Source: Candidatus Multivorans sp. (lineage in GTDB: Bacteria; Acidobacteriota; Thermoanaerobaculia; Multivoradales; Multivoraceae). Taken from it: 64,000 nucleotides of DNA. Where the stretch lies: the NCBI GenBank assembly GCA_965247095.1, contig OZ251997.1, positions 4,553,210 through 4,617,209 on the forward strand, given 5' to 3'. The notes beneath the pieces were generated by a model. The model was not told the DNA's origin, made no database searches, and saw only the letters and a program-made list of their open reading frames with translations. Shown here piece by piece: positions 38,554 through 62,440 of the stretch; position 1 is the first letter of the stretch; the number at the start of each line of letters is the position of its first letter. Made by a program: the position numbers and the translations under genes.

Positions 38554-38726
38554 TGGTAGCGACAACATGCGGATGCGCGGGCCTCTACGGTTCACGAGCC
38601 CGCCGTGCGACAATACCGGTTCGCGGTTCCAGGACGCGGGCAGCCCGCTCGAGATTCCCGGACATTCGGTGGTTGGGTGGTCGTTCGCGATCAACAGCCG
38701 CTTTGCCTGGCCCAGCACCTGACGAC

Positions 38727-42331: not shown

Positions 42332-42341
42332 GGGGCAGCGG

Positions 42342-43589: not shown

Positions 43590-43716
43590 GTCACCAAGCG
43601 TCGAACGGAAGTCGGCCTGGCGCAAGGATCACCTGCACTGCGTCTGCGGACTCGCGAACGGCCGCGCCGGCGTTCTCGAGATCGGGCGGAACGACCGCGG
43701 CAGGGCCCGCCAATGA
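43579..43716 (+). pseudogene. AlbA_2/Schlafen-like domain N-terminal stub
   Basis: MPPESPSVERKSAWRKDHLHCVCGLANGRAGVLEIGRNDRG resembles ES..vE.K..W.....vcgfAN..GG.l.IG..D.G. Confidence 0.65.
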
Positions 43717-46700
43717 GCGCCGTCGGCGAACTCGAAGCCCGTACCCAGCGCCGGGTCATCGACTTCTTCCGGGAGCAGCTCGGCTACAGGTATCTGGGCA
43801 ACTGGCACGAGCGACCGCACAATCGGAACATCGAGGAGGACCTCCTCCGGCAGTTCCTCACCCGCCAGGAACACGAGCCGGCCATCATCGCCAAAGCGCT
43901 GGAGAAACTCGGCAAGGCCGCTGCTCTCGGCGGAAGCAAGACCCTCTACGACGCCAACCGCGAGGTGTACGGCCTCCTGCGCTACGGAGCGAACCTCAGC
44001 CCGGGGCTCGGCGAGCACACGGTCACCGTCAACCTGATCGATTGGGAGAACCCGGGCTCGAACGACTTCGCCATCGCCGAAGAGGTCACGGTCGAGGGGC
44101 ACCACACCAAGCGGCCCGACATCGTGCTCTACGTCAACGGGATCGCCATCGGCGTCCTTGAACTCAAGCGCTCGACCGTCTCCGTGGCCCAGGGCATCCG
44201 CCAGAACCTGGACAACCAGAAGAAGGACTTCATCCAGCCGTTCTTCACCACGGTGCAGCTCGTCATGGCGGGCAACGAGACCGAAGGATTGCGTTACGGC
44301 GTGATCGAGACAGCGGAGAAGTACTGGCTCCGCTGGAAGGAGGCCGACGCCCCAGACACCGACGCTCCGCTCCAAGCCGAGCTCGGATACCTCTGCACAC
44401 CCGCCCGCTTGCTCGAACTCCTGCACGACTTCGTGGTCTTCGACGCGGGCGTCAAGAAGATCTGCCGGCACAACCAGTACTTCGGCGTGAAGTCGGCACG
44501 GGCTTTTGTCCAGCGGCGCGAGGGCGGGATCATCTGGCACACCCAGGGCAGCGGCAAGAGCCTCACGATGGTGTGGCTGGCGAAGTGGATCCGTGAGCTC
44601 AAGGGCGTGGACGGCCGCGTGCTGATCGTCACCGACCGCACGGAACTCGACGAACAGATCGAGAAGGTCTTCAAGGGCGTGGACGAGGACATCTACAGGA
44701 CGAAAAGTGGGGCCGACCTCGCGGAAGTCCTTCGCGACCCGGCCAAGTCGCTGATCTGTTCGCTCGTCCACAAGTTCGGTAGCTCCGAGGACGGCAGCGT
44801 CGACCGGTACGTGAGAGACCTGCAGTCCAACATGTCAGGTGGTTTCCAGCCCGCCGGCGAGATCTTCGTCTTCGTGGACGAGTGTCACCGCACCCAATCG
44901 GGCAAGCTCCACCGGGCCATGAAGGCCATCCTCCCCGGCGCTACGCTCATCGGCTTCACGGGAACCCCGCTCCTCAGGGCCGACAAGCAGCGGAGCATCG
45001 AGACCTTCGGCCCGTACATCCACACCTACAAGTACGACGAGGCGGTTGGCGACAAGGTGGTGCTCGACCTCCGCTACGAAGCGCGGGACATTGACCAGGA
45101 CATCACGTCGGAGGCGAAGATCGACCAGTGGTTCGACGGCAAGACCAAGGGCCTCAGCGACCTGGCCCGAGCGCAGCTCAGGCAGAAATGGGGCACCATG
45201 CGCAAGGTCACGAGCTCGCTCGACCGGATCCGGAAGATCGTGGCCGACATGCTGATGGACATGGAGATGAAGGACCGCCTGCAGAGCGGCCGCGGCAACG
45301 CCATGCTCGTGTCCGGCAGCGTTTACGCCGCCTGCCGGTTCTTCGAGGCGTTCAGTGGGACCGGCCTGAAGGGCAGGTGCGCCATCGTCACTTCCTACGT
45401 TCCGGCGTCAAGCGACATCAAGGGAGAAGAGACGGGCGAGGGCCTGACCGAAAAGCTGCTCAAGTACGACGTCTACCGGAAGATGCTCGCGGACCACTTC
45501 GGCGAGCCCGAGGACAGGGCCATGCACAAGGCCGAGCAGTTCGAGCAGGAGGTCAAGCGCCGGTTCGTGAACGAGCCCGGCCAGATGAAGCTGCTCATCG
45601 TCGTCGACAAGCTGCTGACCGGCTTCGACGCACCGCCCGCGACCTATCTCTACATCGACAAGAGAATGCAGGATCACGGTCTCTTCCAGGCGATCTGCCG
45701 CGTCAACCGGTTGGACCGCGACGACAAGGAGTACGGCTACATCATCGACTACAAGGACCTGTTCCGGTCGCTGGAGGGCGCGATCAAGGACTACACGGGC
45801 GAAGCGTTCGAGGGATATGACCGCGAGGACGTGGAGGGGCTGCTGAAGGACCGGCTGGAGCAGGGGCGAGAGCGCCTGGAGGAGACCCGGGAAGCGGTCA
45901 AGGCGCTGTGCGAACCCGTCGAGCCACCGTACGACACGGACGCGTATCTGCGCTACTTTTGCCACGGCGGAGAGGGCGGCGCTGCCAACCAGTCCGGCCG
46001 GAATGAACGAAAACGTCTTACGCTGTACAGAATGGTGGCGGCATTCCTGCGCGCCTACGCCAACCTGGCCAACGAGATGACCGAGGCCGGTTACACGGAG
46101 TCCGAGCGGCTCGTCATCAGGGACGAAGTCAGCCACTACGAGAAGGTCCGCCAGGAGGTCAAGCTGGCCAGCGGCGACTATGTGGATCTGAAGGTGTTCG
46201 AGCCCGCCATGCGGCACCTGCTCGATACCTACATCCGGGCCGAGGACAGCGAGGTCGTGTCCGCGTTCAACGACATGACGCTCGTGGACCTGCTCGTGCG
46301 GGACGGGGTGGGAGCCATCGGCGAGCTTCCCGAGGGGATTCGGAGTAGCCAGGGCGCCGTCGCCGAGACCATCGAAAACAACGTCCGCCGCCTGATCGTC
46401 GACGAGATGGCCGTCAATCCGAAGTACTACGAGAAGATGTCGGCGGTGCTCGATGCGTTGATCAAGCAGCGCAAGGAAGAGGCGATCGAGTACGAGGCCT
46501 ATCTCAGGAAGGTGATCGAGCTCGCTGAGAAGGTGAAGAGCGGTGAGGGTGGCGCGTCGTATCCCGAGAGCATCAAGACAAAGGCGCTCCGCGCCATCTA
46601 CGACAACCTGTGGGAGGAGGTGCCGGCGACGACGTTGGCTGAGTCTGGCCCGGACGGAAGTTCTGAGGGCGACGCCGACCCGCGTGAGGCCGTGGCATTG

Positions 46701-46859
46701 GATGTCGACAATGCGGTCCGGGAGGCTCGAATGGACGGTTGGCGCGACAGCCCCATCAAGGAGAAGCGAATCCGGAGGGCAATCCGGGACGCACTCGGCC
46801 CCTTCCGCGAGCAGGTCAACACGCTGTTCCAGGTCGTGAGGAATCAGAGTGAGTACTAG
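43713..46859 (+). CDS. hsdR: Type I R-M restriction subunit
   Basis: RPDIVLYVNG..ELK, HTQGSGKS, DECHR, FTGTP, LLTGFDAP, QAICRVNR. Confidence 0.96.
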   Translation: MSAVGELEARTQRRVIDFFREQLGYRYLGNWHERPHNRNIEEDLLRQFLTRQEHEPAIIAKALEKLGKAAALGGSKTLYDANREVYGLLRYGANLSPGLGEHTVTVNLIDWENPGSNDFAIAEEVTVEGHHTKRPDIVLYVNGIAIGVLELKRSTVSVAQGIRQNLDNQKKDFIQPFFTTVQLVMAGNETEGLRYGVIETAEKYWLRWKEADAPDTDAPLQAELGYLCTPARLLELLHDFVVFDAGVKKICRHNQYFGVKSARAFVQRREGGIIWHTQGSGKSLTMVWLAKWIRELKGVDGRVLIVTDRTELDEQIEKVFKGVDEDIYRTKSGADLAEVLRDPAKSLICSLVHKFGSSEDGSVDRYVRDLQSNMSGGFQPAGEIFVFVDECHRTQSGKLHRAMKAILPGATLIGFTGTPLLRADKQRSIETFGPYIHTYKYDEAVGDKVVLDLRYEARDIDQDITSEAKIDQWFDGKTKGLSDLARAQLRQKWGTMRKVTSSLDRIRKIVADMLMDMEMKDRLQSGRGNAMLVSGSVYAACRFFEAFSGTGLKGRCAIVTSYVPASSDIKGEETGEGLTEKLLKYDVYRKMLADHFGEPEDRAMHKAEQFEQEVKRRFVNEPGQMKLLIVVDKLLTGFDAPPATYLYIDKRMQDHGLFQAICRVNRLDRDDKEYGYIIDYKDLFRSLEGAIKDYTGEAFEGYDREDVEGLLKDRLEQGRERLEETREAVKALCEPVEPPYDTDAYLRYFCHGGEGGAANQSGRNERKRLTLYRMVAAFLRAYANLANEMTEAGYTESERLVIRDEVSHYEKVRQEVKLASGDYVDLKVFEPAMRHLLDTYIRAEDSEVVSAFNDMTLVDLLVRDGVGAIGELPEGIRSSQGAVAETIENNVRRLIVDEMAVNPKYYEKMSAVLDALIKQRKEEAIEYEAYLRKVIELAEKVKSGEGGASYPESIKTKALRAIYDNLWEEVPATTLAESGPDGSSEGDADPREAVALDVDNAVREARMDGWRDSPIKEKRIRRAIRDALGPFREQVNTLFQVVRNQSEY

Positions 46860-47694
46860 CGGTACCTGCATTGAGATCCGCGGCGTCGAGGTGGAGGTCG
46901 TCCGCAAGGACATCAAGCACCTGCACCTCGGCGTCTATCCCCCGGAGGGAAGGGTCCGGGTCGCCGCTCCTCTACACCTCGACGACGACGCGGTACGGTT
47001 GGCGGTGATCTCCCGGTTGGCCTGGATTCGCCGGAAGCGGGCGGAGTTCGAGCGGCAGGATCGCCAGTCCCGGCGCGAGTATGTGACCGGCGAGAGCCAC
47101 TACTTCGAAGGGTGCCGCTACCGTCTGGACGTGGTCGTCTCGGGCGGCCGGAACGGGATTCGACTACGCGACAAGGCCTGGTTGGAAATGCGCGTAGGCC
47201 CCGGCACGGGCCGTGACGCCCGCGAAGCGATGCTCTACAGGTGGTACCGGCTCCAACTGCGAAGGCGCAGCCCGTCGCTGGTCGCCGAGTGGGAGACCAG
47301 GCTCGGCGTCCGTGTGGCGGAGTGGCGTCTCCGGCGCATGAAGACGCGGTGGGGCACGTGCAACTGTGAAGCCCGTCGCATTTGGCTCAATACCGAACTG
47401 GCCAAAAAGCCCATTCGTTGTCTGGAATACGTTGTCGTCCACGAGATGGTCCATCTGGTCGAACGGTCCCACAACGAGCGTTTCCGGGCCATTCTGGACC
47501 GCGTACTGCCCGGCTGGCGTCAACGTCTCGACGAATTGAACAGCGGACACTTGGCCGACGAGGGTTGGGAGGAGTGTCCGGCCTCCGGCGGGCGTCTCGT
47601 CGAGGTCTCCGCCGATCCGATGGAACCAAGTTCGGCATCTTTGAACTTGACCGAGGTCGCCACGGCGGAGTCAGCCGCGGCGGACGCTGAGTGA
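46849..47694 (+). CDS. M48/YgjP-like (DUF45) metallopeptidase domain protein
   Basis: MKTRWGTCN, YVVVHEMVHL..HNERF; common neighbour of hsdR. Confidence 0.9.
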   Translation: MSTSGTCIEIRGVEVEVVRKDIKHLHLGVYPPEGRVRVAAPLHLDDDAVRLAVISRLAWIRRKRAEFERQDRQSRREYVTGESHYFEGCRYRLDVVVSGGRNGIRLRDKAWLEMRVGPGTGRDAREAMLYRWYRLQLRRRSPSLVAEWETRLGVRVAEWRLRRMKTRWGTCNCEARRIWLNTELAKKPIRCLEYVVVHEMVHLVERSHNERFRAILDRVLPGWRQRLDELNSGHLADEGWEECPASGGRLVEVSADPMEPSSASLNLTEVATAESAAADAE

Positions 47695-48203
47695 GCAGCG
47701 GCGGCGAGACCGTCGGCGTCAACGGGATCGCGCACATCCAGTTGACGGTCCGTGACCCGGAGCGTTGCCTGCCGTTCTGGGAGCGGCTATGCAACTTCCT
47801 CGACATGCGCACGCTGATCCGCGGCGAGGACGTGCTGTACTGCATCGGCAGTCGCACCGGCATCCTGGTGCGGGCCGCGCCGGCGGACAAACGGGGCCGC
47901 GGGTTCGATCAGGACCGGCCTGGGCTCCACCACTTCTGCTTCCGGGCCAGGAGCCGCGCCGATGTCGACGCGATCTATCGCTTCATCGTGTCCGAACTCG
48001 ACGCCACGATCGTCCACGGCCCTAAGGAAGGCAGTCGCTTCGCACCAGGCTACTACTCGATCCTGGTTGAGGATCCGGACGGCATCCGGGTCGAAGTGAA
48101 CCACGTTCCGGGCAAGGGGCACTTCGGAGACGGCGGGCGTCTGGGACCCGGTGGGACCGGTCCCGCCAGTACCTACGGCGATCACGGGCTGGGCGACGCC
48201 TGA
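47691..48203 (+). CDS. VOC/glyoxalase family protein
   Basis: GIAHIQLTV.D, GLHHFCFRA, EDPDGIRVEV. Confidence 0.9.
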   Translation: MSSGGETVGVNGIAHIQLTVRDPERCLPFWERLCNFLDMRTLIRGEDVLYCIGSRTGILVRAAPADKRGRGFDQDRPGLHHFCFRARSRADVDAIYRFIVSELDATIVHGPKEGSRFAPGYYSILVEDPDGIRVEVNHVPGKGHFGDGGRLGPGGTGPASTYGDHGLGDA

Positions 48204-51540: not shown

Positions 51541-51984
51541 ATGATGAGGGATGGACATCGCTTTCGTGGGACCGTAGGACTCGGCTTTGCCGTACTGGCC
51601 TTGACGCTCGCGGCCGCGGCCTTCGCGCACCTCAAGGCGCTCAACACCAGTCCGGAGGATGGTGCAACCCTGAGCGGTCCTGTACGCACGCTCCGGGTCT
51701 TCTTCAACCAGGAACCGGACGTGCCGCTGAGCAAGCTCGAACTCGAAGGGCCGCAGGGCCCGCTGAGAGTCGAGGGTCTGCACACGATGGGCGAGAAGGA
51801 CCTGATGGCCAGGGTTTCGGGTCGCATGCCCGACGGCGCCTACACCGCCCGCTGGCAGACGACCGGCGACGACGGGCACGTCCTCAAGGGCGAGTGGACG
51901 TTCACGATTGCCAGGGAGGTTCGAGCTGTCGAGCCTGCCCTTGCGCCGCGTGAGTTCGCACGCATTGACCGCGGCGGTCGCTGA
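51541..51984 (+). CDS. copC: Copper resistance protein CopC
   Basis: Signal AFA then His1 (HLKAL..SP.DG); DGH copper motif. Confidence 0.88.
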   Translation: MMRDGHRFRGTVGLGFAVLALTLAAAAFAHLKALNTSPEDGATLSGPVRTLRVFFNQEPDVPLSKLELEGPQGPLRVEGLHTMGEKDLMARVSGRMPDGAYTARWQTTGDDGHVLKGEWTFTIAREVRAVEPALAPREFARIDRGGR

Positions 51985-52005
51985 CCTGCTGACCCGGTAC
52001 CGGCA

Positions 52006-52887
52006 GTGAGCTGGGAGATGGCCGGCCGCTGGTCGGTCTACCTGCCCCTGCTGCTGGTTTACGGTGTTCTGGGCATGCGGGTGCTGGTAGCTGCCCGCGG
52101 GTCCTCGTTCTCGGTTCGCGACCCGCAGTTGGCGCTCTGGCGTCTCGGATGGATGTCGGCGCTGCTGCTTGTTGCCGCGTTGCTGCTGCGGGCCGTGTTT
52201 CAGTCAATCGAGGTCTGGGGGACCGGCGGCGGACTGTCTCTCGAGAACCTTCGGGCGGTGGCGCTTGAGAGCCGATGGGGCAATCGCTGGCAGTGGCAGG
52301 CGGGCGCCGCCGCGCTGGCGGCGTTCGGATCCCTCGTGCTGCTCCGGCTCCCGGCCCTCGGCGGCGCCCTCGCCTGGATCGGCGCGTTCGGTGTGGGTGC
52401 GGCGCTGCCGATGACCGGTCACGCCTACGGCGATTCCCTGGCTTGGACTGCGCAGAGTGTTCATATCGTGGGCGCCGGGTTCTGGATCGGCACCTTGATC
52501 GTGCTGCTCGCTGTCCCTCTGGGTTTGTCGGGAATCTCGAAGCCTGAGGCGGCTTCGATTCGACGTTTCTGGCTACAGGCTTTCGCGCCTCTGGCGGTGA
52601 CTGGCGCGACGCTGCTTGTTGCCAGCGGCGGGCTGCTGGCCTATCGCTACCTGCCGGCCTGGGACGCACTGTGGACCGATCGGTACGGTCAGATCCTCCT
52701 GATCAAGGTGGCGCTGAGCGTGCTGGTCCTTTCTTTCGGGGTCAGGAACTACGTACAGATGCACTTCCGACCCGACCAGTACACGGATCCGCTGCCGAAG
52801 ACCGTCTTCCTCGAGGTCGGCTTTGCCCTGCTGGTGCTGGCTGCCACGGGCGTGCTGACGAGCACGGCGCAGCCCGACATGCACTGA
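52006..52887 (+). CDS. copD: Copper resistance membrane protein CopD
   Basis: TGHA, H..GAG.WIG.L, YGQILLIK; follows copC. Confidence 0.88.
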   Translation: MSWEMAGRWSVYLPLLLVYGVLGMRVLVAARGSSFSVRDPQLALWRLGWMSALLLVAALLLRAVFQSIEVWGTGGGLSLENLRAVALESRWGNRWQWQAGAAALAAFGSLVLLRLPALGGALAWIGAFGVGAALPMTGHAYGDSLAWTAQSVHIVGAGFWIGTLIVLLAVPLGLSGISKPEAASIRRFWLQAFAPLAVTGATLLVASGGLLAYRYLPAWDALWTDRYGQILLIKVALSVLVLSFGVRNYVQMHFRPDQYTDPLPKTVFLEVGFALLVLAATGVLTSTAQPDMH

Positions 52888-52902
52888 GCGGGCGCCTTCC
52901 GG

Positions 52903-55323
52903 CTAGAAGTTGATCCGGCTCGTTATCCCGAACGTCCGCGGCTGGTTCGTCAGGTAGCCGACCCGGGCCCGCGTACCGCGCTCCTGGTCGAGGGCCAGAA
53001 AGGCCCGTTCGTCCGTTGCGTTGTTGACGAAGAGTGCGATGTCCCAGCGCTCACCCAAAAAGCCCAGCCGCAGGTTCAGGAGGTCGTAGGCCGGCATCTC
53101 CGGATCGAACCGAAACACACTCTGGGTCAGCGGACCGCCGATCGGGTTGGTGGCGGAGAGAGCCAGAAGATCCACGGTGCCGAAGCCGGGGGCATGGTCG
53201 CCGATCTGGGTGAAGCGGGAACCGACGTGCTGGAAGGCAGAGGAAAGGTAGCCGGCCCAGTTGCCGGCCTCCCAGCGGTAGGTCGCGGCGACCGCGGCCT
53301 GGAACTTCGGCACCGTCGGCAGGCGGTTGCCCTTCTCGATGCCGGAGACCACGGTCGTGGTGCCGTCGGCGGCGGTCGAGGTCAGGGTCGAGCCGATCTC
53401 GGAGTCCGCGTAGCTGGCCGAGATCGCGTAGTCGAACGCGCCGTTGGGCTGCCCGGTGATCTCGAGTTCCAATCCCGTGCTGCGCGCGCTCGGCACGTTG
53501 AAGATCAGCCGGGACGAACAGGACCCGGCGGTGACGGTCGTCTGCAGGTCCGAGATGTCCATGGTGAACGCGGCGATGTTGAAGGTGCCGCGGCCGCCCA
53601 GGATCGTCGACTTCGAGCCGACCTCGTAGTTCCAGAGCTCCTCGTCGTTCCAACTGTCGCGGCCGCTGAAGGTTTCGAGATCCTCGGGCGTGCACACCGG
53701 TTTGTTGAGCGGATCGTTGATGCCGCCGAGCCGGAAGCCCTTGGCGACCTGCGCGTTGAGCCGCGTGTTCTCGCTGACCTCGAAACTGGCGATGAAGCGC
53801 GGCGCGATGCCGTCCGCGCTGGTCTCCCCTTCGGTCGGTCCCGGATCGGCGAACAGGCCGTCGAAGACCTGGCTGCGGCTCTCCTCGTAGTCGTACCAGC
53901 GGGCGCCCGCCGTCAGATCGACCCGTTCGCTGGCGGTCCAGGTGATCTCGAAGAACGCCGCCGTTTGGTCGAACTCGTAGTTCAGGTCGGAGTAGAAGAG
54001 CTCGTCGGTGGCCGCGCCGAAGGCGCCCGCGGTGGGAATCTCGCTCATGGCTTCGAAGCCGGTGACCGGCAGGCTCTGGCCGTAGTTCCGTTCGCTGCTG
54101 CTGTAGAACAGGCCGAGAACCCAGTGGGTGTACTCGTCCCCACTGGACAGCCGCAACTCCTGGGTCAGGCCGGTGGCGGTCGTCGCGTCGATCAGGGGAG
54201 CGTCCAGGGTGTAGATCTGCTCGGGAAGGCCGATCGTTGCGCCGGCGACGCTTGCGTAGAGGGCGGTCGAGTCGCGCACGACGAGCACGTCGCGGTCCGT
54301 CGTCGTCGTGATCGAGGTGAAGGAGTATCCGTCGTCGAGGTCGATCTCGATCTTCAGGTCGGCGAGCAGGAACTCGTCGGTGTAGGGCTCCTCGAACTGG
54401 GTGAAGAGCTCGCGCTCGCCGAGGTTCACCGCGGGGCGCGTCGTCGTGTAGGGGTTGGCCAGGATGTTGAAATCGTCGATCCGGTTCCAGCCGTCCATGT
54501 TGACTTCCTGGTAGATCACGCGGGGAGTCACGGTGACGTTGTCGTTGGGCTCGAAGCGGAGGGCCCAACGGGCGCCGGTCCGCTCGCCGGAGTTCACGTC
54601 CTCGTTGACGCTCAGATCGGGCTGCACCGCGTCCATGAAACCGCCGAAGGCCGTGTGGTAGGCGGTGATCCGCATCGCCGAGGTGTCGCCCACGGGAACG
54701 TTGACCGCGACCTTCGCGTTGCCGCCGGTGCCGCCGTCGCCTATCGAGTTGAGCGAGAACTCGCCGAAGCCCTCCGAGACACCGACCTCAGGCTGGTTCG
54801 TGATGTAGCGGACGGTTCCGGCCAGCGAACCGGACCCGAACAGGGTGCCCTGCGGTCCCCGCAGGACCTCCACGCGCGACATGTCGAAGAGGTCAATGTC
54901 CGGCGTGAACAGCGAAAGGGAGATCACCGACTCGTCGAGGTAGATGCCCACCTGCTCCTTGACCCCGGGCTGGTCGCGGACGATCTGCCCGGCGGCGACG
55001 CCGCGCATGGCGACCTGGCTCTGGCCGGGGCCGAGGTTCTGCACGGTGAACCCGGCCACGTTGGCCGAGATCTCCTCCAGGTTGGAGACGCCGCGGTTGC
55101 GCAGCACGTCCTCGCTCGGAGCGACGATCGAGAAGGGAACCTCCTGGAGGTTCTCCTCCCGTTTTCGGGCGGTCACGGTGATTTCCTCGGAGAACGTCTG
55201 GCCGGGCGCCGCCTCGGCTTCTTCCGGTTCCGCATCTTGCCCAGCCGCCGGACTTCCGAGGCCGGACCACAGGAGGGCCAGCGTGCAGGTCAGGAAGAGT
55301 TGCGCGAAGCGGGTCCGAGTCAT
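52903..55323 (-). CDS. TonB-dependent receptor
   Basis: EEITVTARKREE.LQ.VP, RVEVLRGPQGTLFG, terminal PRTFG..F. Confidence 0.95.
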   Translation of the reverse strand: MTRTRFAQLFLTCTLALLWSGLGSPAAGQDAEPEEAEAAPGQTFSEEITVTARKREENLQEVPFSIVAPSEDVLRNRGVSNLEEISANVAGFTVQNLGPGQSQVAMRGVAAGQIVRDQPGVKEQVGIYLDESVISLSLFTPDIDLFDMSRVEVLRGPQGTLFGSGSLAGTVRYITNQPEVGVSEGFGEFSLNSIGDGGTGGNAKVAVNVPVGDTSAMRITAYHTAFGGFMDAVQPDLSVNEDVNSGERTGARWALRFEPNDNVTVTPRVIYQEVNMDGWNRIDDFNILANPYTTTRPAVNLGERELFTQFEEPYTDEFLLADLKIEIDLDDGYSFTSITTTTDRDVLVVRDSTALYASVAGATIGLPEQIYTLDAPLIDATTATGLTQELRLSSGDEYTHWVLGLFYSSSERNYGQSLPVTGFEAMSEIPTAGAFGAATDELFYSDLNYEFDQTAAFFEITWTASERVDLTAGARWYDYEESRSQVFDGLFADPGPTEGETSADGIAPRFIASFEVSENTRLNAQVAKGFRLGGINDPLNKPVCTPEDLETFSGRDSWNDEELWNYEVGSKSTILGGRGTFNIAAFTMDISDLQTTVTAGSCSSRLIFNVPSARSTGLELEITGQPNGAFDYAISASYADSEIGSTLTSTAADGTTTVVSGIEKGNRLPTVPKFQAAVAATYRWEAGNWAGYLSSAFQHVGSRFTQIGDHAPGFGTVDLLALSATNPIGGPLTQSVFRFDPEMPAYDLLNLRLGFLGERWDIALFVNNATDERAFLALDQERGTRARVGYLTNQPRTFGITSRINF

Positions 55324-55445
55324 GGCAGCCTCCAGGTGCTGGGGATTTGGCGAGCTCGTGCAGTTGCTATCTACGTTCAGAGCCCGTTGGGTTCTCGAGC
55401 TCGGGCGGTCGTCGCCGGTTGCCCTGTCAGGGCCGCCGGTGCCGC

Positions 55446-55635
55446 TCGAGCGTACGGCAATCCCCTTGCCTGGTCGTTGTGGGGCTCGGCGTTGCGAACT
55501 ACTTGGGGCTCCGATTCCGCCCCGACCGGGACACGGATCCGCTACCCGCCACCGTGACCTTAGAAGTCGTCTTCGCCGCTTGTGCTTGCAGCCACCGGCG
55601 TGCTCACAGGCACGGCGCAGCCGCATGGCCACTGA
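55446..55635 (+). pseudogene. Diverged copD 3'-end remnant no. 1
   Basis: GVANYLGLRFRPDRDTDPLPATVTLEVVFA/LVLAATGVLTGTAQPHGH* versus CopD GVRNYVQMHFRPDQYTDPLPKTVFLEVGFALLVLAATGVLTSTAQPDMH*. Confidence 0.9.
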
Positions 55636-55719
55636 TGGACGCAGAGTAGACGAATCACTTGATCGGCCTACCGGCCGGCACGCACTGCGTCTTGTTGAGA
55701 ACTCGAACGGCGAGCCAAG

Positions 55720-55835
55720 CTAGGCCGCGCGCGATGTCTCGCGTTCCCGTGCCACCACGGCCTCCAGATGAGGCGGCGGTCGCCACAGGCACTCCATGAC
55801 GTAGGGCAGGTCCATGGGCAGGCCGTCCCAGGCGC
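55720..55835 (-). pseudogene. 3'-end remnant of a DUF222-HNH gene
   Basis: AWDGLPMDLPYVMECLWRPPPHLEAVVARER versus AWDGRPMDLRYVMECLWKPPPHLQAVVDRER near 20610-20705. Confidence 0.9.
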
Positions 55836-56060
55836 CCTTGGGTGCTTCCGGGGACGCGGACGGCTCGCGATGCGAAGCGTGTCGCTCGGCCTGCGAGAGC
55901 AGCGCGAATGCGTTGCAGTTGAAACGCCGACTTGGAAGACGGTTTGGACCGACCCGTACGACCACATGGTCCTCGTCAGAGTGTCACTGAGCTTGGTCGC
56001 TCTGGAGGCTGTTCACCCTGGTGCTGACAGCGTGCCGCTCGGAGGGGAGACCCACCCTGG

Positions 56061-56711
56061 TCACAAACGTCGCTGTCCGACCCAGAGGTAGATGGCGCCG
56101 GCGTAGAACTCCTGGTACCGGACCTCGTCCAGGTGCCGCCTGACTGACTCCCAGGGCGTTCGCTCGGCGTAGCCAGGGCTTACTCCAAAGGGCCGGAGGA
56201 GCCAGGTTCCGAAACGAACCATCCACTCCGGCCGCCCTTCCGGTCGCTTCATTTCCAAGATGGCTAGGCGTCCCCCGGGGCGCAGCGCCTCCGCCGCCCG
56301 CTGGATGACACCGTCGTAATCGTCGAACATGGTCATGGCGAAGGTGGACAGCACGCCTCCGATGTTGCCCGGAAGCTCGTAGTCGCCCGCGGCGGACTCC
56401 ACCAGGTCGACATTCGCCCATCCCGCGCTCTCCACGCGATGCCGAGCTTCTCGCAGCATGGCATCGGTAAGGTCGACGCCGACGATGCGCCCCGAGTCGG
56501 TGACGGCGCGTTCCAACCACAGAAAGTTCCGCCCCGTGCCACATCCGAGGTCCAACACGGTGTCGCCTGGTGAAACACCTAACGCCTCCACGGCACGGCG
56601 ACGGTACGTGCTCACCCGCGCACCGGAGAGCCCAAACAGCCCGACGAGGCGGTCGTAGTGACGGGCGCGTCGGCGATAGAGCGCTCGCGTCTGAGACGGA
56701 GTCAGCACCAC
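56061..56711 (-). CDS. Class I SAM-dependent methyltransferase (UbiE-like)
   Basis: VLDLGCGTG, GVDLT..ML, LRPGGRL. Confidence 0.85.
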   Translation of the reverse strand: MVLTPSQTRALYRRRARHYDRLVGLFGLSGARVSTYRRRAVEALGVSPGDTVLDLGCGTGRNFLWLERAVTDSGRIVGVDLTDAMLREARHRVESAGWANVDLVESAAGDYELPGNIGGVLSTFAMTMFDDYDGVIQRAAEALRPGGRLAILEMKRPEGRPEWMVRFGTWLLRPFGVSPGYAERTPWESVRRHLDEVRYQEFYAGAIYLWVGQRRL

Positions 56712-56809
56712 GAGTTCCAGGTCCTTTCTCTGTGTGTGGCGACTGGATCGAGCGAGAATTCTGACCCCCTTGTGGCCCACGCGCTTCCATCGCGCCGCAG
56801 GTCCGGGGC

Positions 56810-56910
56810 CCGTGGACGCTACCAGCCCACGGTCTCTCAACCCTGTCAGTGCCTGCCTGCAGCCACCGGCGTGCTCGCGGGTACGGCGCCGGCGGGCATA
56901 CGCTCTGATG
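56810..56910 (+). pseudogene. More decayed copD 3'-end remnant no. 2
   Basis: tgcagccaccggcgtgctc (56858-76) is identical to 55597-615; encodes AATGVLAGTA; upstream ggacgctaccagcccacggt resembles ggatccgctacccgccaccgt. Confidence 0.7.
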
Positions 56911-57246
56911 AAGCCGGGTGTCCCCTATTGGTGACCCGCGAAGGGTCGATTCCGCCGGCGCGCCATCAGCCGACGCCTCCGCGCCCTGCCACATAACGGC
57001 CCCGCTGTCACTGTGAACCAGATTCGATCGGGCAGTCGCCGACGGGATCGCCGAAAGGAATCGGAATGACCGAGGGCGTCGCGATGGCGGAAGGTCACGA
57101 CTAGGTGGCTCGTGCGGCGTTCCCACGTCGAAAGCCTGGCTCCTGGACTATTCCACCTGATAATCCCGGTTGCAGCCGAACGACGCGCAGGGCCCATGGC
57201 CCGGAAACGTTTGAAAGCGGTGTGGCTGCTGTAGACTCAATTGGCT

Positions 57247-58522
57247 CACTGCTGTCCCACAAACGGGGAGAAGGTATGGGTCTGAACCGTGCCTTGTCGT
57301 ATGATTGGTTTTCACGAAATGCCAATGACGGCAAGGAGATCCAGACCCATGGCGCACAATAGTACCGTACTCGGTCAGTTCCTCAAGCTGGTGTCGAGAC
57401 ATGAGTTCGAGCGGGAGGCCCGACGGCATCACAGGGGACGCAAGCTGCGCTCGATGAGTCGCTGGGGCCAGTTCGTGGCGATGGCGACGGCGCAGCTTTC
57501 CGGGCGGCGCAGTCTGCGAGACATCGTGTCGAACCTGGAAGCTCAGACTCACAAGCTGTACCATCTCGGCGTTGGCCGAGTGGCCCGATCTTCGCTGGCG
57601 CGGGTGAACAGGGAGCAGCCTCACGAACTGTACGAGGCGCTGTTCGGGCGCCTTCTGAGGCGTTGTCAGGCGTCGGCGCCGGGGCATGGGTTCCGGTTCC
57701 GGAACAAGTTGGTGTCGCTGGACGCGACGTACGTGGACCTGTGCCTGGCGGTGTTTCCCTGGGCGCAGTACCGCAAGACCAAGGGTGCGTTGAAGCTGCA
57801 CGTGGGTCTTGACCACGAGGGCTGTCTGCCGTCGTTCCTGCACGTCACCGACGGCAAGGGATCGGACCTTGAAGTGGCCCGGTCGCTTCGGCTGCCGAAG
57901 GGGAGCATCGTCGCGGCGGACCGGCTGTACCTCGACTTCGGGTGGCTGAACGACCTTGATGCACAAGGGGTTTTCCTGGTCGCCCGCCTGAAGCGGGGAG
58001 TCCGATACGCGGTTCGGGAGCGACGCTCGTTTGCGCCCAAACGCGGCGTGACGTCGGACCAGACCATCGTGCTGACCAGCGCCAAGGGGCGCAGGCGATG
58101 CCCCATTCCCCTGCGTCGGGTCGGTTACCGCGACCCGAAGACAGGTCGGCACTACGCCTTCCTGACCAACAACTTCAGTCTGGCGGCGAAGACCATCGCG
58201 GACATCTACAAGGCCCGCTGGCAGATCGAGCTGTTCTTCAAGTGGATCAAACAGAATCTGCGCATCAAGAGTTTCGTCGGCGCCTCGCCCAACGCGGTCA
58301 TGACGCAGATCTGGATCGCCGTGTGCGTCCATCTGCTGCTCGCCTACCTGAAATTCGCCAACAAGATGTCGTGGACCATGAGCCAGATCCTGCGCCTCCT
58401 GCAACTCAACCTGTTCGACCGAAGACCGCTGTTGGACCTGTTCGAACCCGGGGGCGGACCGCCCGACCCGAGAAACACACAAACTCAACTCGCTCTACGT
58501 TGAAGTTTGTGGGACAGCAATG
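57247..58522 (+). mobile_element. IS4-family insertion sequence, complete
   Basis: 18-bp TIRs cactgctgtcccacaaac / gtttgtgggacagcaatg; 9-bp target duplication caattggct (57238-46 and 58523-31). Confidence 0.95.
57349..58503 (+). CDS. IS4-family DDE transposase
   Basis: LDAT, KLH, ADR.Y, FLTN, YKARWQIELFFKWIKQ (YREK signature). Confidence 0.95.
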   Translation: MAHNSTVLGQFLKLVSRHEFEREARRHHRGRKLRSMSRWGQFVAMATAQLSGRRSLRDIVSNLEAQTHKLYHLGVGRVARSSLARVNREQPHELYEALFGRLLRRCQASAPGHGFRFRNKLVSLDATYVDLCLAVFPWAQYRKTKGALKLHVGLDHEGCLPSFLHVTDGKGSDLEVARSLRLPKGSIVAADRLYLDFGWLNDLDAQGVFLVARLKRGVRYAVRERRSFAPKRGVTSDQTIVLTSAKGRRRCPIPLRRVGYRDPKTGRHYAFLTNNFSLAAKTIADIYKARWQIELFFKWIKQNLRIKSFVGASPNAVMTQIWIAVCVHLLLAYLKFANKMSWTMSQILRLLQLNLFDRRPLLDLFEPGGGPPDPRNTQTQLALR

Positions 58523-58596
58523 CAATTGGCTAGAGAGTGCTAACGGTATCTTCGAGTCGCTAAGAGTCATTACTAACAGAGCAGAGCCGAAGTCAA

Positions 58597-59769
58597 ATGG
58601 GTCATAAAATCACCTTCTTGCTGGGCGCCGGATCGTCGCAGGCCGCTGGATTCCCGTCTACGAAGAATCTAACTGAAAAGACTGTTTCCGGCCGCGGAGT
58701 TTCACGAAATGGCGACGGCTCCTACTACGTCGGTGAAGACGATGGACCCCCAAACGGTGTACTGCGGCTTGTCACGAGCATGGTGAGACGACTTCATGCA
58801 GAGGCGGTTCGCTACTACTCGGGAACCGCCGGAAGACCCACCAACTACGAGGACATATACTACTTGGCCTCTCAGGTGCGGGACGAGCTGTCAGGCGATC
58901 TGGAGAACCCGGCCATTCGTGGGTTCGTAAGCGAGCTGAGAGCCGATATGTCCCCATTGGTGGCAGATGCGAGTGCAAGAGTGGAAGATGGGCGATGGGA
59001 ACAGCACATGCCGGTCGATCTAGAGGGTCTCCTCAAGGAGGTATGCCTCTACATTGCAGGCATAGTCTCGCAGAGCCTAATCTCTCACCGCTCTGCGTCA
59101 GAGTCTAAGCCGAGTGTCATCGCATCCGTCTGCAAGTCCGCTGACGTGAGCAGCATATCGACGGTTTGTCACGACACCCACCTAGAAGAGTTCCTCGAAT
59201 CAGAGGGCGTTGAGTTAGTCGACGGGTTTTCAGATTCCGACCGTAGCGTCCCACATTGGACCGGCGGCTTCTCGTCGGATGTTAAGACGCCTTTCCTGAA
59301 GCTTCACGGCTCCGTCAACTGGTTCCGCTATACCGACAGGAGTATCAGGCGTGTTCCGCCCCTTTGTTACCCACAGCGTCTAGCTGACGCGGAGAGCCAC
59401 TATGCTGAAGACGGTCGTCCGCTGTTGCTGATCGGCACGTTCAACAAGATGGCAGATTACAGCTCGGGTGTCTTCCTCGAACTGCACTATCGATTTCGTG
59501 CAACCCTCCGAGAATCTAGCAAGCTCGTTGTTTGTGGATATAGTTTCGGGGACAAGGGCATTAACGAAGAGATTGTCGGGTGGATCGAGGGCGGGAAAGG
59601 AAGGCTGCTAGTAGTTATTCACCCAGATCCAAGTAGCCTCGTTGCCAGTGCGCGCGGCGCGATAAGGAATGGCTGGGAGGAATGGAACAGGAGGGGCGTC
59701 ATTAGGTTAATAGAGAAGCGTTTGGAGTTTGTAACGATGGATGATTGTGTAGGTGCGGTGTTGTCGTAG
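58597..59769 (+). CDS. SIR2-family (SIR2_2-like) protein, candidate anti-phage NADase
   Basis: FLLGAGSS, LKLHGSVNW, GYSFGD; clearly lower GC than the backbone. Confidence 0.8.
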   Translation: MGHKITFLLGAGSSQAAGFPSTKNLTEKTVSGRGVSRNGDGSYYVGEDDGPPNGVLRLVTSMVRRLHAEAVRYYSGTAGRPTNYEDIYYLASQVRDELSGDLENPAIRGFVSELRADMSPLVADASARVEDGRWEQHMPVDLEGLLKEVCLYIAGIVSQSLISHRSASESKPSVIASVCKSADVSSISTVCHDTHLEEFLESEGVELVDGFSDSDRSVPHWTGGFSSDVKTPFLKLHGSVNWFRYTDRSIRRVPPLCYPQRLADAESHYAEDGRPLLLIGTFNKMADYSSGVFLELHYRFRATLRESSKLVVCGYSFGDKGINEEIVGWIEGGKGRLLVVIHPDPSSLVASARGAIRNGWEEWNRRGVIRLIEKRLEFVTMDDCVGAVLS

Positions 59770-59799
59770 TGGCGCTGACGCCGGAAGATAACGGTCACC

Positions 59800-60940
59800 T
59801 AGTGTAGTGTCTCCGACATGGGTTGACAGTCTCGGGCAAGTTCGTCAGTATTCCGTTCATGTGGGAACCAGCGGAACGACTTCACATCGAAGAGAGGGAT
59901 CGAGCGCTTCTCAAGAAATGGGTAGAGGCGCCGACGACGACGCAACGCACGGTCCGGCGTAGCCGGATCGTGCTCGCTGCGGCGGAGGGCACGGCCAATC
60001 GGGCGATTGCGGCGAAACTCGGCGTTTCGCGGCCCACGGTGCTGCTGTGGCGTCGTCGGTTCGCGGAGGACGGACCTTCGGGGCTGACCAGGGATCGTCC
60101 CCGCGGTTGCGGAAAGCCGCCGCTCTCGGAGTCGGTCGTGCGTAAAGTGATCGAAGCGACGCTGCACGAGAAGCCGCCCGGTCAGACCCACTGGAGCGTG
60201 CGTTCGATGGCTCGGGCCCAGGGCATCAGTCCGGCGGCGGTCCAGCGCATCTGGGTGGCGCACGGGCTGAAGCCCCATCTGGTCAAGACGTTCAAGCTGA
60301 GCAACGACCCCAGGTTCGTGGAAAAGCTGCGGGACGTTGTGGGCCTGTACCGGAATCCGCCCGAGAACGCGCTTGTGCTGTGCGTGGACGAGAAGAGCCA
60401 GATCCAGGCTCTGGACCGGACCCAGCCGGGCTTGCCGCTCAAGCGCGGCCGCGCGGGAACGATGACCCACGACTACAAGCGCAACGGGACGACGACGTTG
60501 TTCGCTGCGCTGAACGTGTTGGAGGGCACGGTGATCGCGGAGTGCATGGGCCGGCAGCGCCACCAGGAGTTTCTCCGTTTCCTCAAGCGTCTCGACCGTG
60601 AGATCCCGAAGCATCTCGACCTGCACCTGATCCTGGACAACTACCAGACCCACAAACACGCCGCCGTGCGCGCATGGCTGGAGCGAAAGCCTCGCTTCCA
60701 CTTCCATTTCATTCCCACTTCGTCGCCCTGGCTCAACCTGGTCGAACGCTGGCTGGGCGGTCTGACCACGAAGGCGATCCGGCGCGGTGCATTCCAGAGC
60801 GTCAACGACCTCGTAAAGACCATCTACGACTACGTGGAGCACAGCAACGAAAACTCCCGGCCGTTCGTCTGGACGGCCACCGCCGACAGCATCATCGCAA
60901 AGGTTACACGTGGTAAAGCCATGTTGGAGACAGTACACTA
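59800..60940 (+). mobile_element. IS630-family insertion sequence, complete
   Basis: TIRs tagtgtagtgtctccgacatgg / ccatgttggagacagtacacta; TA at both ends within CTAG. Confidence 0.95.
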
Positions 60941-60941
60941 G
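59859..60941 (+). CDS. IS630-family transposase
   Basis: THWS.R.MA, CVDEKSQIQAL, HDYKRNGT, LDNY.TH, WLNLVERW. Confidence 0.95.
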   Translation: MWEPAERLHIEERDRALLKKWVEAPTTTQRTVRRSRIVLAAAEGTANRAIAAKLGVSRPTVLLWRRRFAEDGPSGLTRDRPRGCGKPPLSESVVRKVIEATLHEKPPGQTHWSVRSMARAQGISPAAVQRIWVAHGLKPHLVKTFKLSNDPRFVEKLRDVVGLYRNPPENALVLCVDEKSQIQALDRTQPGLPLKRGRAGTMTHDYKRNGTTTLFAALNVLEGTVIAECMGRQRHQEFLRFLKRLDREIPKHLDLHLILDNYQTHKHAAVRAWLERKPRFHFHFIPTSSPWLNLVERWLGGLTTKAIRRGAFQSVNDLVKTIYDYVEHSNENSRPFVWTATADSIIAKVTRGKAMLETVH

Positions 60942-60974
60942 GAGGAGAGAGCAGCCAGGGGCGCTACTGTGCCG

Positions 60975-61220
60975 AGAGGTCTTGCCGAAAGTATGAGGTC
61001 GGCGGTCTGATCAGGCAGCGTCCTTGATCGGATTTCCGTTGTTGAATCGTACTCCTTCTCTGACCGGAGCGACGGCGGGTGGCGCGTTGACCCGTGGCCA
61101 TCCTTGTTGCGCCATGTCGGGCAGCTTGAACGCCTTCAGGAAGGCCTTGGTTTGTGGAGCCGGCGCCCTTGGTGATGCGCTTGCGCAGCCGGACCGTGCG
61201 AACGTCGAGTCGATCGCCTT
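60975..61220 (-). pseudogene. IS256-family transposase 3' remnant
   Basis: With frameshifts reads IDSTFA/VRLRKRITKGAGS/AFKL..AQQGW.RVNAP..V..VREGVRF.NG..AA*. Confidence 0.65.
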
Positions 61221-61266
61221 TAGGGGTGGCCTGGCGCCGTAGTCCACCGTCGATTCGCTGGAGCAG

Positions 61267-61670
61267 TCAGACGGTCATCTTCGGGGTTGCCCAGAGCAGG
61301 CGAGGGGGCACCGCGTAGAGACCGTCGCCGAAACTCATAGAAGTGTCACCGTCGTTCAGCACGACGCCGCTGGCAAACCGACTACCGGTCGCTGCCCTCA
61401 GCTTGCGCAGGCCGCGGAAGTCCGCCTTGTTCACCCTGGGTCCTGCCTCGACTTCCTCTCCTGCGACTTGCAGTGCTCCCCGCTCAATGACGATATCCAG
61501 CTCCACCTTTTCCTTGTCGCGGTAGTGGAAGAGCTCCAGGGGGCATCGTCCCTGCTCGCCTGTCGCCTCAGTTCCTGAAACACGAACGTCTTAAGGAGTT
61601 GGCGCAACAACGGCCGGCTGCCGGCCAGCGCTGCGGCGTCGACGCCCAGGAGCGCGCAGGCAAGGGCGTC
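61267..61670 (-). pseudogene. AAA+ ATPase DUF4143 C-terminal remnant
   Basis: LACALLG..LL.TFVFQELRRQ / FHYRDKEKVELDIVIE..DFRGLRKL..GVVL.DG..FGDGLYAVP; frameshifted and 5' deleted. Confidence 0.75.
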
Positions 61671-61891
61671 TAATTGCAAGGTCAGGTGTCGTCCAATTGA
61701 AATGTTGGCGCCGTCCGATTGAAAGGACGCCGATCGGCCAACTGCAGTTCGTGCTGTCTACGCGCGCCCCTGCGGGAACGCCTCCGCCAGACTCATCGGG
61801 CTACAGCAGCGAGGACAGAATCGGGTCCTTCAGCGACAACGGAGAGTGCGAGCGTCCGGTGCCCGCGCCCACGGTTCCGCTGACCAGAACC

Positions 61892-62440
61892 CTATTGACC
61901 CTCTCCGCCAGACGACCGCAGGTGCGGTTCTAGCAGGTTGCCCCACTGGTCGGCGTATGGGTGTACGCGGTCGACCTCGACCTCGCCGCGGTAGACGGGC
62001 CTGCCCGAGTTGGCCCACTCGAAGATCGAGCCTTCGAGGTTCCAGACCCGGCCGCCGATCTCCGGGTCATTCAACTGGATCAGGTCGGCGACGGCGGCCG
62101 ACGAACGGTAGCCCACGGAGCAGTAGAGGATGATCGGGCGGTCGGGCTCTGAAGCCGCTACGAGTTCGGCGATGTCGGCGCCCTGGGCATGGATTGCGCC
62201 GGGGAGATGGCTGACGTCGTACTCGAACGGCTCGCGGACGTCGATCACGAGGGGCGGGGGCTCGTCGTCGAGCCTTCGGTCGAGTTCCTCGACGCTCATC
62301 TGGGGCACGCCGGGGAAACTGGCGCGGACCAGGGCCCTGAGTTGGGACATGCTTGGCCCGCCGCAGGCTGCCGCGAGCATCGCGGCGACCAGCGATGCAG
62401 CGAGCCGGGCTCGGTTCCTGGATGCGCGCGCTGTCGTCAC
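61892..62440 (-). CDS. Rhodanese-like lipoprotein
   Basis: LAAAC lipobox; IDVREP.EY..SHLPGA, YCSVGYRS, NLEGSIFEW. Confidence 0.88.
   Translation of the reverse strand: MTTARASRNRARLAASLVAAMLAAACGGPSMSQLRALVRASFPGVPQMSVEELDRRLDDEPPPLVIDVREPFEYDVSHLPGAIHAQGADIAELVAASEPDRPIILYCSVGYRSSAAVADLIQLNDPEIGGRVWNLEGSIFEWANSGRPVYRGEVEVDRVHPYADQWGNLLEPHLRSSGGEGQ

Follow-up and report, generated by a model that had tools for sequence, protein, structure and literature searches.

Dead copD 3' ends stacked downstream of an intact copD gene lie in a rhodanese-bounded island shared by two genomes of the genus Candidatus Multivorans

Introduction

Downstream of the intact copD gene of a Candidatus Multivorans genome (Acidobacteriota; NCBI GenBank assembly GCA_965247095.1, contig OZ251997.1), truncated copies of the copD 3' end follow one another in the orientation of that gene, with other genes between them. 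How do the ends of one gene come to be stacked in this way? An initial annotation, made from the sequence alone, took copD for a polarised accretion site, at which incoming DNA repeatedly recombined within the gene, supplied a new 3' end plus downstream cargo, and pushed older ends outward. We analysed the locus within a stretch of 64,000 nucleotides (positions 4,553,210 to 4,617,209 of the contig; hereafter the window), which is the last 64 kb of a single-contig genome of 4.62 Mb, and compared it with relatives in a genus set of 42 genomes (this genome, G000, and 41 relatives). The copD remnants were found inside an island that is bounded by rhodanese sequence and shared with one other genome of the set. 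Our favoured reading, to which we give a probability of about 0.6, is that the copD tails are dead ex-alleles that were trapped by illegitimate joins between variants of one locus, of the type made by homology-facilitated illegitimate recombination (HFIR), and were then imported by flanking homology.

Results

Anatomy of the copD locus and the island

The elements of the stack and its surroundings are as follows (ORF, open reading frame; SAM, S-adenosylmethionine; coordinates are those of the window).

51541-51984, plus strand: copC (Pfam CopC, E 7.9e-15)
52006-52887, plus strand: intact copD, the native allele (Pfam CopD, PF05425), the only full copy in the genome, 93% amino-acid identity to G055
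52903-55323, minus strand: TonB-dependent receptor, convergent with copD (Pfam Plug and TonB_dep_Rec_b-barrel; synteny)
55324-55426, no strand: receptor-rhodanese intergenic region of canonical G012/G054 type (alignment of relatives; G054 match 75% over 55355-55451, E 4.1e-9)
55427-55451, minus strand: 3'-end remnant of a rhodanese gene, 25 nt including the stop codon, 23/25 nt identical to the G054 rhodanese end and present in G012 too
55452-55635, plus strand: rem1, copD residues ~233-293 with the stop TGA at 55633-55635 and a 2-nt deletion after 55577 (blastx, nucleotide matches, tree)
55720-55833, minus strand: C-terminal remnant (37 aa) of a DUF222-HNH endonuclease (tblastn 89% against the G012 protein, residues 118-154; DUF222 and HNH matched by Pfam in the G012 ORFs)
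55846-56040, plus strand: 5' part of copy II, copD residues ~190-265 with internal deletions (blastx and nucleotide score)
56061-56840, minus strand: SAM-dependent methyltransferase, longest ORF, with the conserved part from near GTG 56711 (Pfam Methyltransf_25/11, Ubie_methyltran)
56854-56910, plus strand: rem2, copD residues ~276-293 with the stop TGA at 56906-56908, the tail of copy II (alignment against rem1)
61892-62440, minus strand: rhodanese gene with a non-canonical tail (Pfam Rhodanese; boundary alignment; homology to relatives begins at 61916)

All copD copies are collinear on the plus strand, and the CopD similarity is significant for rem1, copy II and rem2, in agreement with the initial annotation, which had placed rem1 and rem2 downstream of the intact gene in the same orientation. 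The HNH remnant and the methyltransferase, also named there, were confirmed by Pfam and tblastn. A self search found copD to be single-copy in the 4.6-Mb genome. In a genome-wide nucleotide search, rem1 matched copD at 77% over 108 nt (E 4.6e-17), and the only other match below E 0.01, beyond rem1 and copD themselves, was rem2 (89% over 36 nt, E 3.2e-6). For the other 21 matches, E was never below 0.02. The significance of remnants was judged from alignment scores against shuffled sequence (300 shuffles for rem2). The score of rem2 was 53 against rem1 (best shuffle 28) and 35 against intact alleles (best shuffle 32). The piece at 55846-56040, which had been missed, gave blastx E values of 7.8e-7 (G049 CopD) and 2.6e-6 (G050), a nucleotide score of 56 with a shuffle maximum of 40, and a nucleotide match to the copD gene of G024 (E 8.5e-5). 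Because this piece and rem2 flank the methyltransferase cassette, they are parts of a single copD copy of ~100 codons, copy II, that was broken by the cassette. The more decayed second remnant of the initial annotation is thus real, but is only the tail of a longer, split copy. Copy II begins next to the start of the DUF222 gene, 8 nt before its ATG, and the spacer between rem1 and the HNH stub is 84 nt. No similarity between copy II and rem1 was detected in their short overlap (score 20; shuffle 95% level 22). Likewise, no receptor remnant was detected after rem1 or rem2 when stretches of 100-200 nt were each aligned with the 220 nt downstream of 31 copD genes (scores 23, 23 and 22; shuffle 95% levels 24, 28 and 27).

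The island spans 55452-61915 (6,464 bp), between the receptor upstream region and the rhodanese gene. The receptor gene is preceded by 103 nt of upstream sequence, then comes the 25-nt rhodanese remnant, and then rem1, which forms the first ~180 nt of the island. The junction between the last two, J, lies between 55451 and 55452 (position uncertain up to ~55465) and links unrelated sequences, the rhodanese end and copD residue ~233. The right end of the island falls in the last two codons of the rhodanese gene. An alignment of the receptor-rhodanese boundary was made with 10 relatives and both sides of the G000 and G012 islands; in it, the protein ends, before the stop, in HLR-SSGGEGQ in G000, in -SSDGDGQ in G012 and in HLRP in all 10 relatives. 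Both island ends are rhodanese-end sequence, not copD. An imperfect direct repeat, gct.ga.c.gcacc.gcgg, flanks the island and matches at 15/19 positions in G000 and ~11/19 in G012; these counts and the 23/25 given above were made by eye on the boundary alignment. The rhodanese remnant, like two insertion sequence (IS) elements that sit 0.3-4 kb beyond rem2, had been overlooked in the initial annotation. Its statement that no integrase or tRNA gene is nearby was borne out: no tyrosine or serine integrase/recombinase domain was found in the 47 window ORFs taken in by the Pfam domain scan or in the scanned ORFs of the G012 island, and there are 0 tRNA genes in the window.

Contigs from four runs of one sample bridge rem1, J, the start of the receptor, the HNH stub and copy II (55012-56112 or 54460-55752) with 0 differences. 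Note that these contigs probably come from the source sample and therefore give no independent support. G012, which is an independent assembly, shows the same junctions. From the bridging contigs and G012 together, the copD remnant stack is not an assembly artefact. A mis-assembly of strain haplotypes, a danger that the initial annotation had named, could draw on the methyltransferase and IS630 segments, which occur with variants at 3-10 times the depth of their neighbours in the sample contigs (3-7 times the surroundings for the methyltransferase cassette), but in view of the bridged and shared joints its probability is negligible.

Conservation of the copD neighbourhood

Mapping of the locus stayed within the genus; family-level CopD matches outside it were 37-44% identical. 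A copD gene or copD remnant was mapped at 36 loci, of which 34 were judgeable for receptor synteny. An intact convergent receptor stands immediately 3' of copD in 29 of them and a degraded receptor at the same place in three (G050, G055 and G056), so that the receptor, intact or degraded, is convergent with copD or a copD remnant in 32 of the 34 judgeable loci. Two mapped loci stop at a contig edge (G019, G057), and two are rearranged, one with fn3/PKD genes (G049) and one with an inverted copCD pair (G052). Given this conservation, the TonB receptor, which in G000 ends 15 nt past the copD end, is a resident neighbour of copD and not the cargo that had been proposed; the near-constant gene order downstream of copD counts against accretion there. 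The rhodanese gene lies at most ~200 nt beyond the receptor wherever both are visible, with G012 as the sole exception. Furthermore, the resident copD tail is 94% identical to that of G055, the closest relative, in which there are no remnants. The 3' end of the resident copD is therefore native, and incoming DNA supplied no new copD end in G000. Across the genus alleles, copD tails are conserved.

The locus has also decayed repeatedly in relatives (G003, G057, G050, G056, G055 and G049). The copD gene has been cut down in place to residues 260-293 in G003 and to residues 1-55 plus 228-293 in G057 (elsewhere given as 229-293). The same three receptor fragments are left in G050 and G056, the receptor of G055 has internal deletions, and in G049 only a 3' stub of it (judged by eye) is followed by the fn3/PKD genes. 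The copD-receptor spacer of G012 holds an apparent extra remnant of ~27 nt from the receptor 3' end, seen by eye only.

In local gene order, an Nramp-like transporter gene on the minus strand stands ahead of copC. Between 51750 and 52900, the copD allele is out of step with its flanks in comparison with G016, at 73-81% identity in copD and 91-97% in the Nramp and receptor genes. Over 51750-52000, which takes in the 3' end of copC and the spacer to copD, identity is only 61-73% to every relative, even to G055. The copCD pair of G052 lies in inverted orientation between its receptor and Nramp genes. Taken together, these three observations suggest that copCD is swapped as a two-gene cassette.

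Origin of rem1

We compared rem1 with the resident copD over 60 codons, and found 28.3 synonymous differences at 49.3 sites and 34.7 non-synonymous differences at 130.7 sites (synonymous divergence, dS, 1.09; non-synonymous divergence, dN, 0.33; ratio about 0.3). In the same codons, intact alleles compared among themselves gave ratios of non-synonymous to synonymous proportions (pN/pS) of 0.24-0.41, and 0.6 for G011. The initial annotation had described the differences as mostly synonymous, quoting a 10-codon stretch that encodes LVLAATGVLT. This stretch exists, with 6 synonymous differences, but its two versions had been labelled the wrong way round (ctg gtg ctg gct... is intact copD, 52831-52860; ctt gtg ctt gca... 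is rem1, 55579-55608), and the description does not extend to the 60 codons. The 2-nt deletion puts the stretch out of frame with the preceding part of rem1.

A maximum-likelihood tree was built from 35 copD tails, including 31 intact genus alleles and the rem1 copies of G000 and G012. The resident tail groups with G055 and G053 (support 99/99), and rem1 falls outside that clade. The rem1 copies of G000 and G012 share a long branch that lies outside the 31 intact alleles, and they group with the in-situ remnant of G003, which may be long-branch attraction. Over 184 nt, the genus tail nearest to rem1, of 31 compared, reaches only 70% identity. The rem1-type tail ends in GTAQPHGH before the stop. 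The dN/dS ratio of ~0.3, rather than near 1, and the position outside both the resident clade and all 31 intact alleles show, in line with the initial annotation, that rem1 diverged while under purifying selection and is an ex-allele, not a decayed recent duplicate. The rem1 orthologue of G012 is 81% identical, and its disabling indels differ from those of G000. A degenerate 20-nt rem1 pattern, searched in metagenome contigs for the donor allele, hit 21 loci, none of which encodes CopD or the neighbouring genes; similarity to the island at these loci was limited to two matches of 23-26 nt at the pattern itself.

Sharing and import of the island

Island-specific segments, including the methyltransferase, occur only in G000 and G012 among the 42 genus genomes. 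G012 has the same J, 25-nt rhodanese remnant, rem1, copy II and altered rhodanese tail, and the two islands are 81% identical over 55349-55833, 84% over 55878-56853 and 85.5% over 61255-61804. In G012 the methyltransferase is frameshifted, and the DUF222-HNH gene is near-complete but frameshifted, as against 37 codons in G000. The G012 island also holds, at ~5157-5316 of its locus, a rhodanese-like fragment (residues 69-121, 53% identity, E 9e-8). G000 and G012 are not sister genomes. The receptor of G000 is 94.3% identical to that of G055, 91.8% to G053, 91.3% to G016 and 88.4% to G012, and the receptor of G012 is 94.8% identical to that of G054; G055, G053, G016 and G054 are all without the island.

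Sequence relationships change across the island. The gene to its right is 84-86% identical in G000 to every relative, and G055, G053 and G016 are 90-94% identical among themselves there; farther out, G000-G055 identity is back to 89-94% on both sides. To the left of J, the intergenic stretch belongs to the G012/G054 type rather than the G016/G053 type. Because of these changes, G000 appears to have gained a tract of ~9 kb, from about the receptor start to past the window end, from an unsampled lineage. Since the island is shared with the non-sister G012, absent from the sisters of both, and bounded by rhodanese sequence, the copD remnants probably arrived as passengers of this tract, and accretion at copD itself, as first proposed, does not describe what is seen.

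The best reading of the remaining contents is that the island was colonised after import by the DUF222-HNH gene, the methyltransferase cassette and two IS elements. Besides the stub in the island, G000 has five other DUF222-HNH copies, located as follows.

Window ~20610-22035, minus strand; G000:C1 466381-467761, 2514236-2515515, 2861456-2862615 and 4309978-4311387: other DUF222-HNH copies

Homology between the copies ends at the ORF ends, and three of them have a common leader of ~30 nt. The C-terminal segment matches 38 of the 41 relatives, often several times per genome. Around these five copies, we found no duplicated gene ends, but only REP-like repeats and one 1.8-kb paralogue pair. For the methyltransferase cassette, homology spans ~56054-56783, and it occurs at 86-91% nucleotide identity in five other loci from Acidobacteriota metagenome-assembled genomes (MAGs), with unrelated neighbours. 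Within ±8 kb of these five MAG loci, no copD, receptor or rhodanese gene was found, and tblastn with CopD gave only E values of 0.08 or more. Three of the five loci have another flanking element in common (ctaataggggtcagataggggtc).

Gene-end remnants elsewhere in the genome

The window holds a type I restriction-modification (R-M) island at ~38554-47690 (hsdM, a YhcG-like nuclease, hsdR, YgjP), which is absent in the closest relative G055. On one side of it is a 168-nt glyoxalase fragment at 38386-38553 (93.5% identity to G055), on the other the whole glyoxalase gene at 47691-48203 (88.6% to G055 in the same segment). The two glyoxalase copies are 87% identical to each other, and a 352-nt deletion has removed the 5' part of the native gene. 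This pair, the rhodanese-end remnant and the rhodanese-like fragment of G012 indicate that the trapping of gene ends is not specific to copD.

A local self-comparison of the genome found 186 short direct repeats whose copies are no more than 20 kb apart. In 56 of these, one copy is a gene segment and the other is non-genic or conflicting, and ~10 of the 56 lie in the last fifth of the gene. The scan for gene-end remnants that the initial annotation had proposed thus yielded ~10 3'-end remnants within 20 kb of their parent, from a crude list: it rests on a home-made ORF filter (2,996 ORFs), and its 56 rows are uncurated, with seven regions viewed and two traced into relatives. The repeated gene 3' ends other than those described above are 80-92% identical and 0.8-8 kb apart, with cargo between.

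G000:C1 1875777-1877986
G000:C1 1913533-1925356
G000:C1 2518706-2526871
G000:C1 2961141-2967809
G000:C1 4210182-4214297
G000:C1 4226889-4228954

The cargo in the seven regions includes PIN and HipA toxin-antitoxin genes, a DDE transposase and a TonB-type outer-membrane protein, and no integrase domain was found in their 39 ORFs. In one case, the 3' end of an aminotransferase gene has stayed native-like (91-93% identical to G055/G053), and behind a PIN module there is a 222-nt copy of the aminotransferase end that is 88% identical to it and 85.5-86% to G055/G053, and is common to G016. These results suggest that gene-end remnants beside cargo are a recurrent phenomenon. A more speculative idea, which we regard as doubtful, is that integrase-free displacement of gene ends, in which one homologous anchor and one illegitimate, possibly Ku-dependent join trap DNA of diverged relatives, is a general route by which small islands are built and traded in this genus. 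If so, dead pieces of neighbouring genes would be expected beside R-M, toxin-antitoxin and HNH cargo. Two islands of this kind lie in the window. In a bolder variant, the multi-copy DUF222-HNH genes may drive some displacement events as homing elements.

Discussion

How the stack may have arisen

On the favoured reading, the locus concerned is the one in which the Nramp, copC and copD genes face the convergent TonB receptor and the rhodanese gene. The founding joins would have been made in at least two events in unsampled lineages, either by recombination that was homologous on one side and illegitimate on the other (HFIR-type) or by unequal illegitimate crossover. A canonical locus, reaching 25 nt into the 3' end of rhodanese, would have been joined at J to a variant that we call the Y-type locus, entered at copD residue ~233, in which a convergent DUF222-HNH gene and other DNA had taken the place of the receptor. 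The Y-type locus would already have borne an older copD tail (from residue ~190) from an earlier event of like kind, and the methyltransferase cassette would have split this older tail afterwards. The finished island would then have moved between lineages by ordinary homologous recombination in its flanks, and the IS elements and a SIR2-like gene would have joined it later. The results above establish the layout, the status of rem1 as an ex-allele, the synteny of the locus, the joint common to both genomes and the shift in relationships along the island; we infer the Y-type donor, the order of events and the enzymology (a RecA anchor followed by end joining). Ku is encoded in the genome and was found in 1 of 14 control genomes.

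The initial annotation had offered homology-facilitated illegitimate recombination or an unknown site-specific system as the mechanism. Recombination with an illegitimate end fits best. The junction positions in copD differ, at ~residue 190 for copy II and ~233 for rem1, as do the ends of the in-situ deletions in relatives, at residues 229 (G057) and 260 (G003), which argues against site-specific joins.

Several points weigh against our reading. ComEC-like and DprA domains are present in G000, but such competence genes are near-universal, being found in 10 of the 14 control genomes, and so carry little weight. A Y-type locus, with copD followed by DUF222-HNH and without a receptor, was not found in the 36 genus loci or in the metagenome pattern scan, and no microhomology was read at J, where there were no parent sequences to compare. 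Because HFIR yields the same product whichever partner donates, an anchor on the copD side and one on the rhodanese side are not distinguishable for the founding event. In addition, rem1 and rem2 are closer to each other than either is to any intact allele, and duplication of a tail inside the island may be the source of this likeness.

Alternative explanations

The accretion model of the initial annotation would place the anchor in copC or the 5' part of copD, with each import bringing a new 3' end plus cargo and pushing older ends out, and with the receptor re-acquired in a receptor-less lineage. It accounts for the convergent gene close behind each end (the receptor 15 nt after copD, the HNH gene 84 nt after rem1) and for decay that grows outward, and loss or decay of the receptor is known in G049, G050, G055 and G056. 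If it acted in an unsampled receptor-less lineage, it would be the mirror image of our reading and give the same product. However, copD and the receptor of G000 are native alleles of the G055/G053 type, and those relatives have no remnants; the island ends in rhodanese sequence; junction positions differ; the rhodanese and glyoxalase remnants point to a process not specific to copD; and in 0 of the 36 mapped loci does copD lead straight into cargo that is in turn followed by a remnant. We therefore consider this model unlikely. The rhodanese boundaries would also suit a decayed integrase-type island in the rhodanese 3' end, with the ~19-nt repeats as attL and attR, the integrase lost, and the copD pieces carried as junk: the repeat flanks the island, the rhodanese tail has been replaced with the old end displaced to the far side, and the same site is used in two non-sister genomes. 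Yet the window and G012 island ORFs that were scanned hold no integrase or recombinase domain, and the repeats resemble two diverged alleles rather than a conserved core, which makes such an origin quite improbable.

The layout in which a newer end (rem1) is followed by an HNH gene and an older end (copy II, 8 nt upstream of the DUF222 ATG) raises the question of homing-type end replacement, in which the DUF222-HNH gene would travel with a new copD 3' end, cut alleles without it, and displace the old end by one-sided repair. DUF222-HNH genes do form a multi-copy family, whose members resemble one another in the ORF alone, but none of the five other copies is flanked by duplicated gene ends or adjoins copD, which weakens the model. 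The copy at this locus is itself degenerate, being frameshifted in G012 and reduced to a 37-aa stub in G000. We rate homing as very improbable. Even less credit goes to a tandem duplication in situ, from copD residue 233 to the rhodanese end, with later decay and replacement of the second receptor. Although J is exactly the joint that it predicts, rem1 stands at a dS of 1.09 from the resident allele and outside its clade, no receptor remnant after rem1 or rem2 rises above the shuffle 95% level, and the sisters are without the structure.

Relation to known systems

The closest process to what we propose is HFIR, and the closest pattern is that of sequential displacement arrays. In HFIR, one homologous anchor and one illegitimate joint trap foreign DNA with no integrase needed, which accounts for a gene fragment that foreign DNA separates from a full, diverged copy of the gene, as with copD and with the glyoxalase of the R-M island. 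Here the two flanks of the joint have different relationships, with the receptor at 91-94% to G055/G053/G016 and the right-hand gene at 84-86% to all, and likewise at the glyoxalase, with the fragment at 93.5% and the full copy at 88.6% to G055. HFIR is described for Acinetobacter, Streptococcus pneumoniae, Pseudomonas stutzeri and E. coli conjugation (PMC3240628, PMC5361080). It is known from laboratory transformation and conjugation, whereas in this study it is deduced from genome comparison, with the donor unsampled and no microhomology read. Effector-immunity arrays for type VI secretion (T6SS) in Vibrio cholerae, and Rhs loci, carry orphaned 3' pieces left downstream in one orientation by successive imports, and HFIR is proposed for them in PMC5361080. 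Those arrays directly follow a gene whose 5' part is constant and whose 3' part is variable and toxic, and their orphan immunity genes are under selection. In contrast, the copD product is an ordinary membrane protein, the remnants of the gene are dead, a conserved gene of 2.4 kb stands between, and the array was not built in G000. Thus the marks of C-terminal displacement arrays (Rhs/CdiA/T6SS) are missing: the receptor intervenes, copD tails are conserved, and no immunity-like partners were found at the locus.

Integrative elements such as e14 or phage 21 in icd, and tRNA-gene islands, bear a replacement 3' end of their target gene. As in the copD case, a diverged gene-end duplicate with synonymous-biased differences flanks the inserted DNA; unlike it, they have an integrase and a conserved core. 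Our scans found no integrase, and here the end repeats, which match only in part, are rhodanese and not copD sequence. Endonuclease-gene-associated replacement of a gene 3' end is known for atp6 of Allomyces, in fungal mitochondria. The order of new end, endonuclease gene and displaced old end is alike, but targeting of copD by DUF222-HNH is unsupported, and the five other copies lack duplicated gene ends at their flanks. The minimal mobile elements of Neisseria are variable cassettes between conserved genes that are exchanged by flanking homology, and resemble our island in occupying one intergenic site, in being present or absent among close relatives, and in moving with flanking tracts; we know of no stacked remnants of neighbouring genes in them. 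Finally, site-specific accretion would give the same junction in independent events, and the junctions at ~190 and ~233 do not agree.

We regard the copD case as an ordinary but unusually legible product of illegitimate and homologous recombination, that is, a new example of a known process, and it reveals no new mobile-element mechanism. Its value is that it records, clearly and in a form that can be dated, how diverged alleles recombined illegitimately, and does so in a soil phylum that is uncultured and whose mechanisms of gene transfer are largely unstudied. A whole stack of gene ends can be inherited in one piece by way of flanking homology instead of being built in place, and dead gene ends beside islands are usable as markers of donor lineages and recombination breakpoints.

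Other features of the island and its surroundings

The remaining features of the island and of the imported tract are listed below.

57247-58522, plus strand: IS element with a DUF4372 and DDE_Tnp_1 transposase at 57289-58503 and 18-nt terminal inverted repeats (Pfam, repeats)
58597-59769, plus strand: SIR2_2-domain gene in a stretch of ~55% GC (weak Pfam match, E 2e-5)
59798-60942, plus strand: IS630-family element with a transposase at 59823-60941 and 30-nt terminal inverted repeats (Pfam, repeats)
61267-61679, minus strand: DUF4143 ATPase remnant, common to the G012 island (weak Pfam match; G012 ORF E 3.7e-6; 85.5% nucleotide identity to G012 over 61255-61804)
62437-63963, minus strand: 508-aa gene with a weak Cu2_monoox_C match, within the putative imported tract (84-86% nucleotide identity to all relatives)

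The SIR2_2 gene may be a defence gene carried in by the IS elements. Elsewhere in the genome, a REP-like family of intergenic repeats of ~70-170 nt, in which aragorn found no tRNA genes, shares the core gggaacgcgggcatcctgcccgc and extends over ~70 kb (G000:C1 2840983-2911429).

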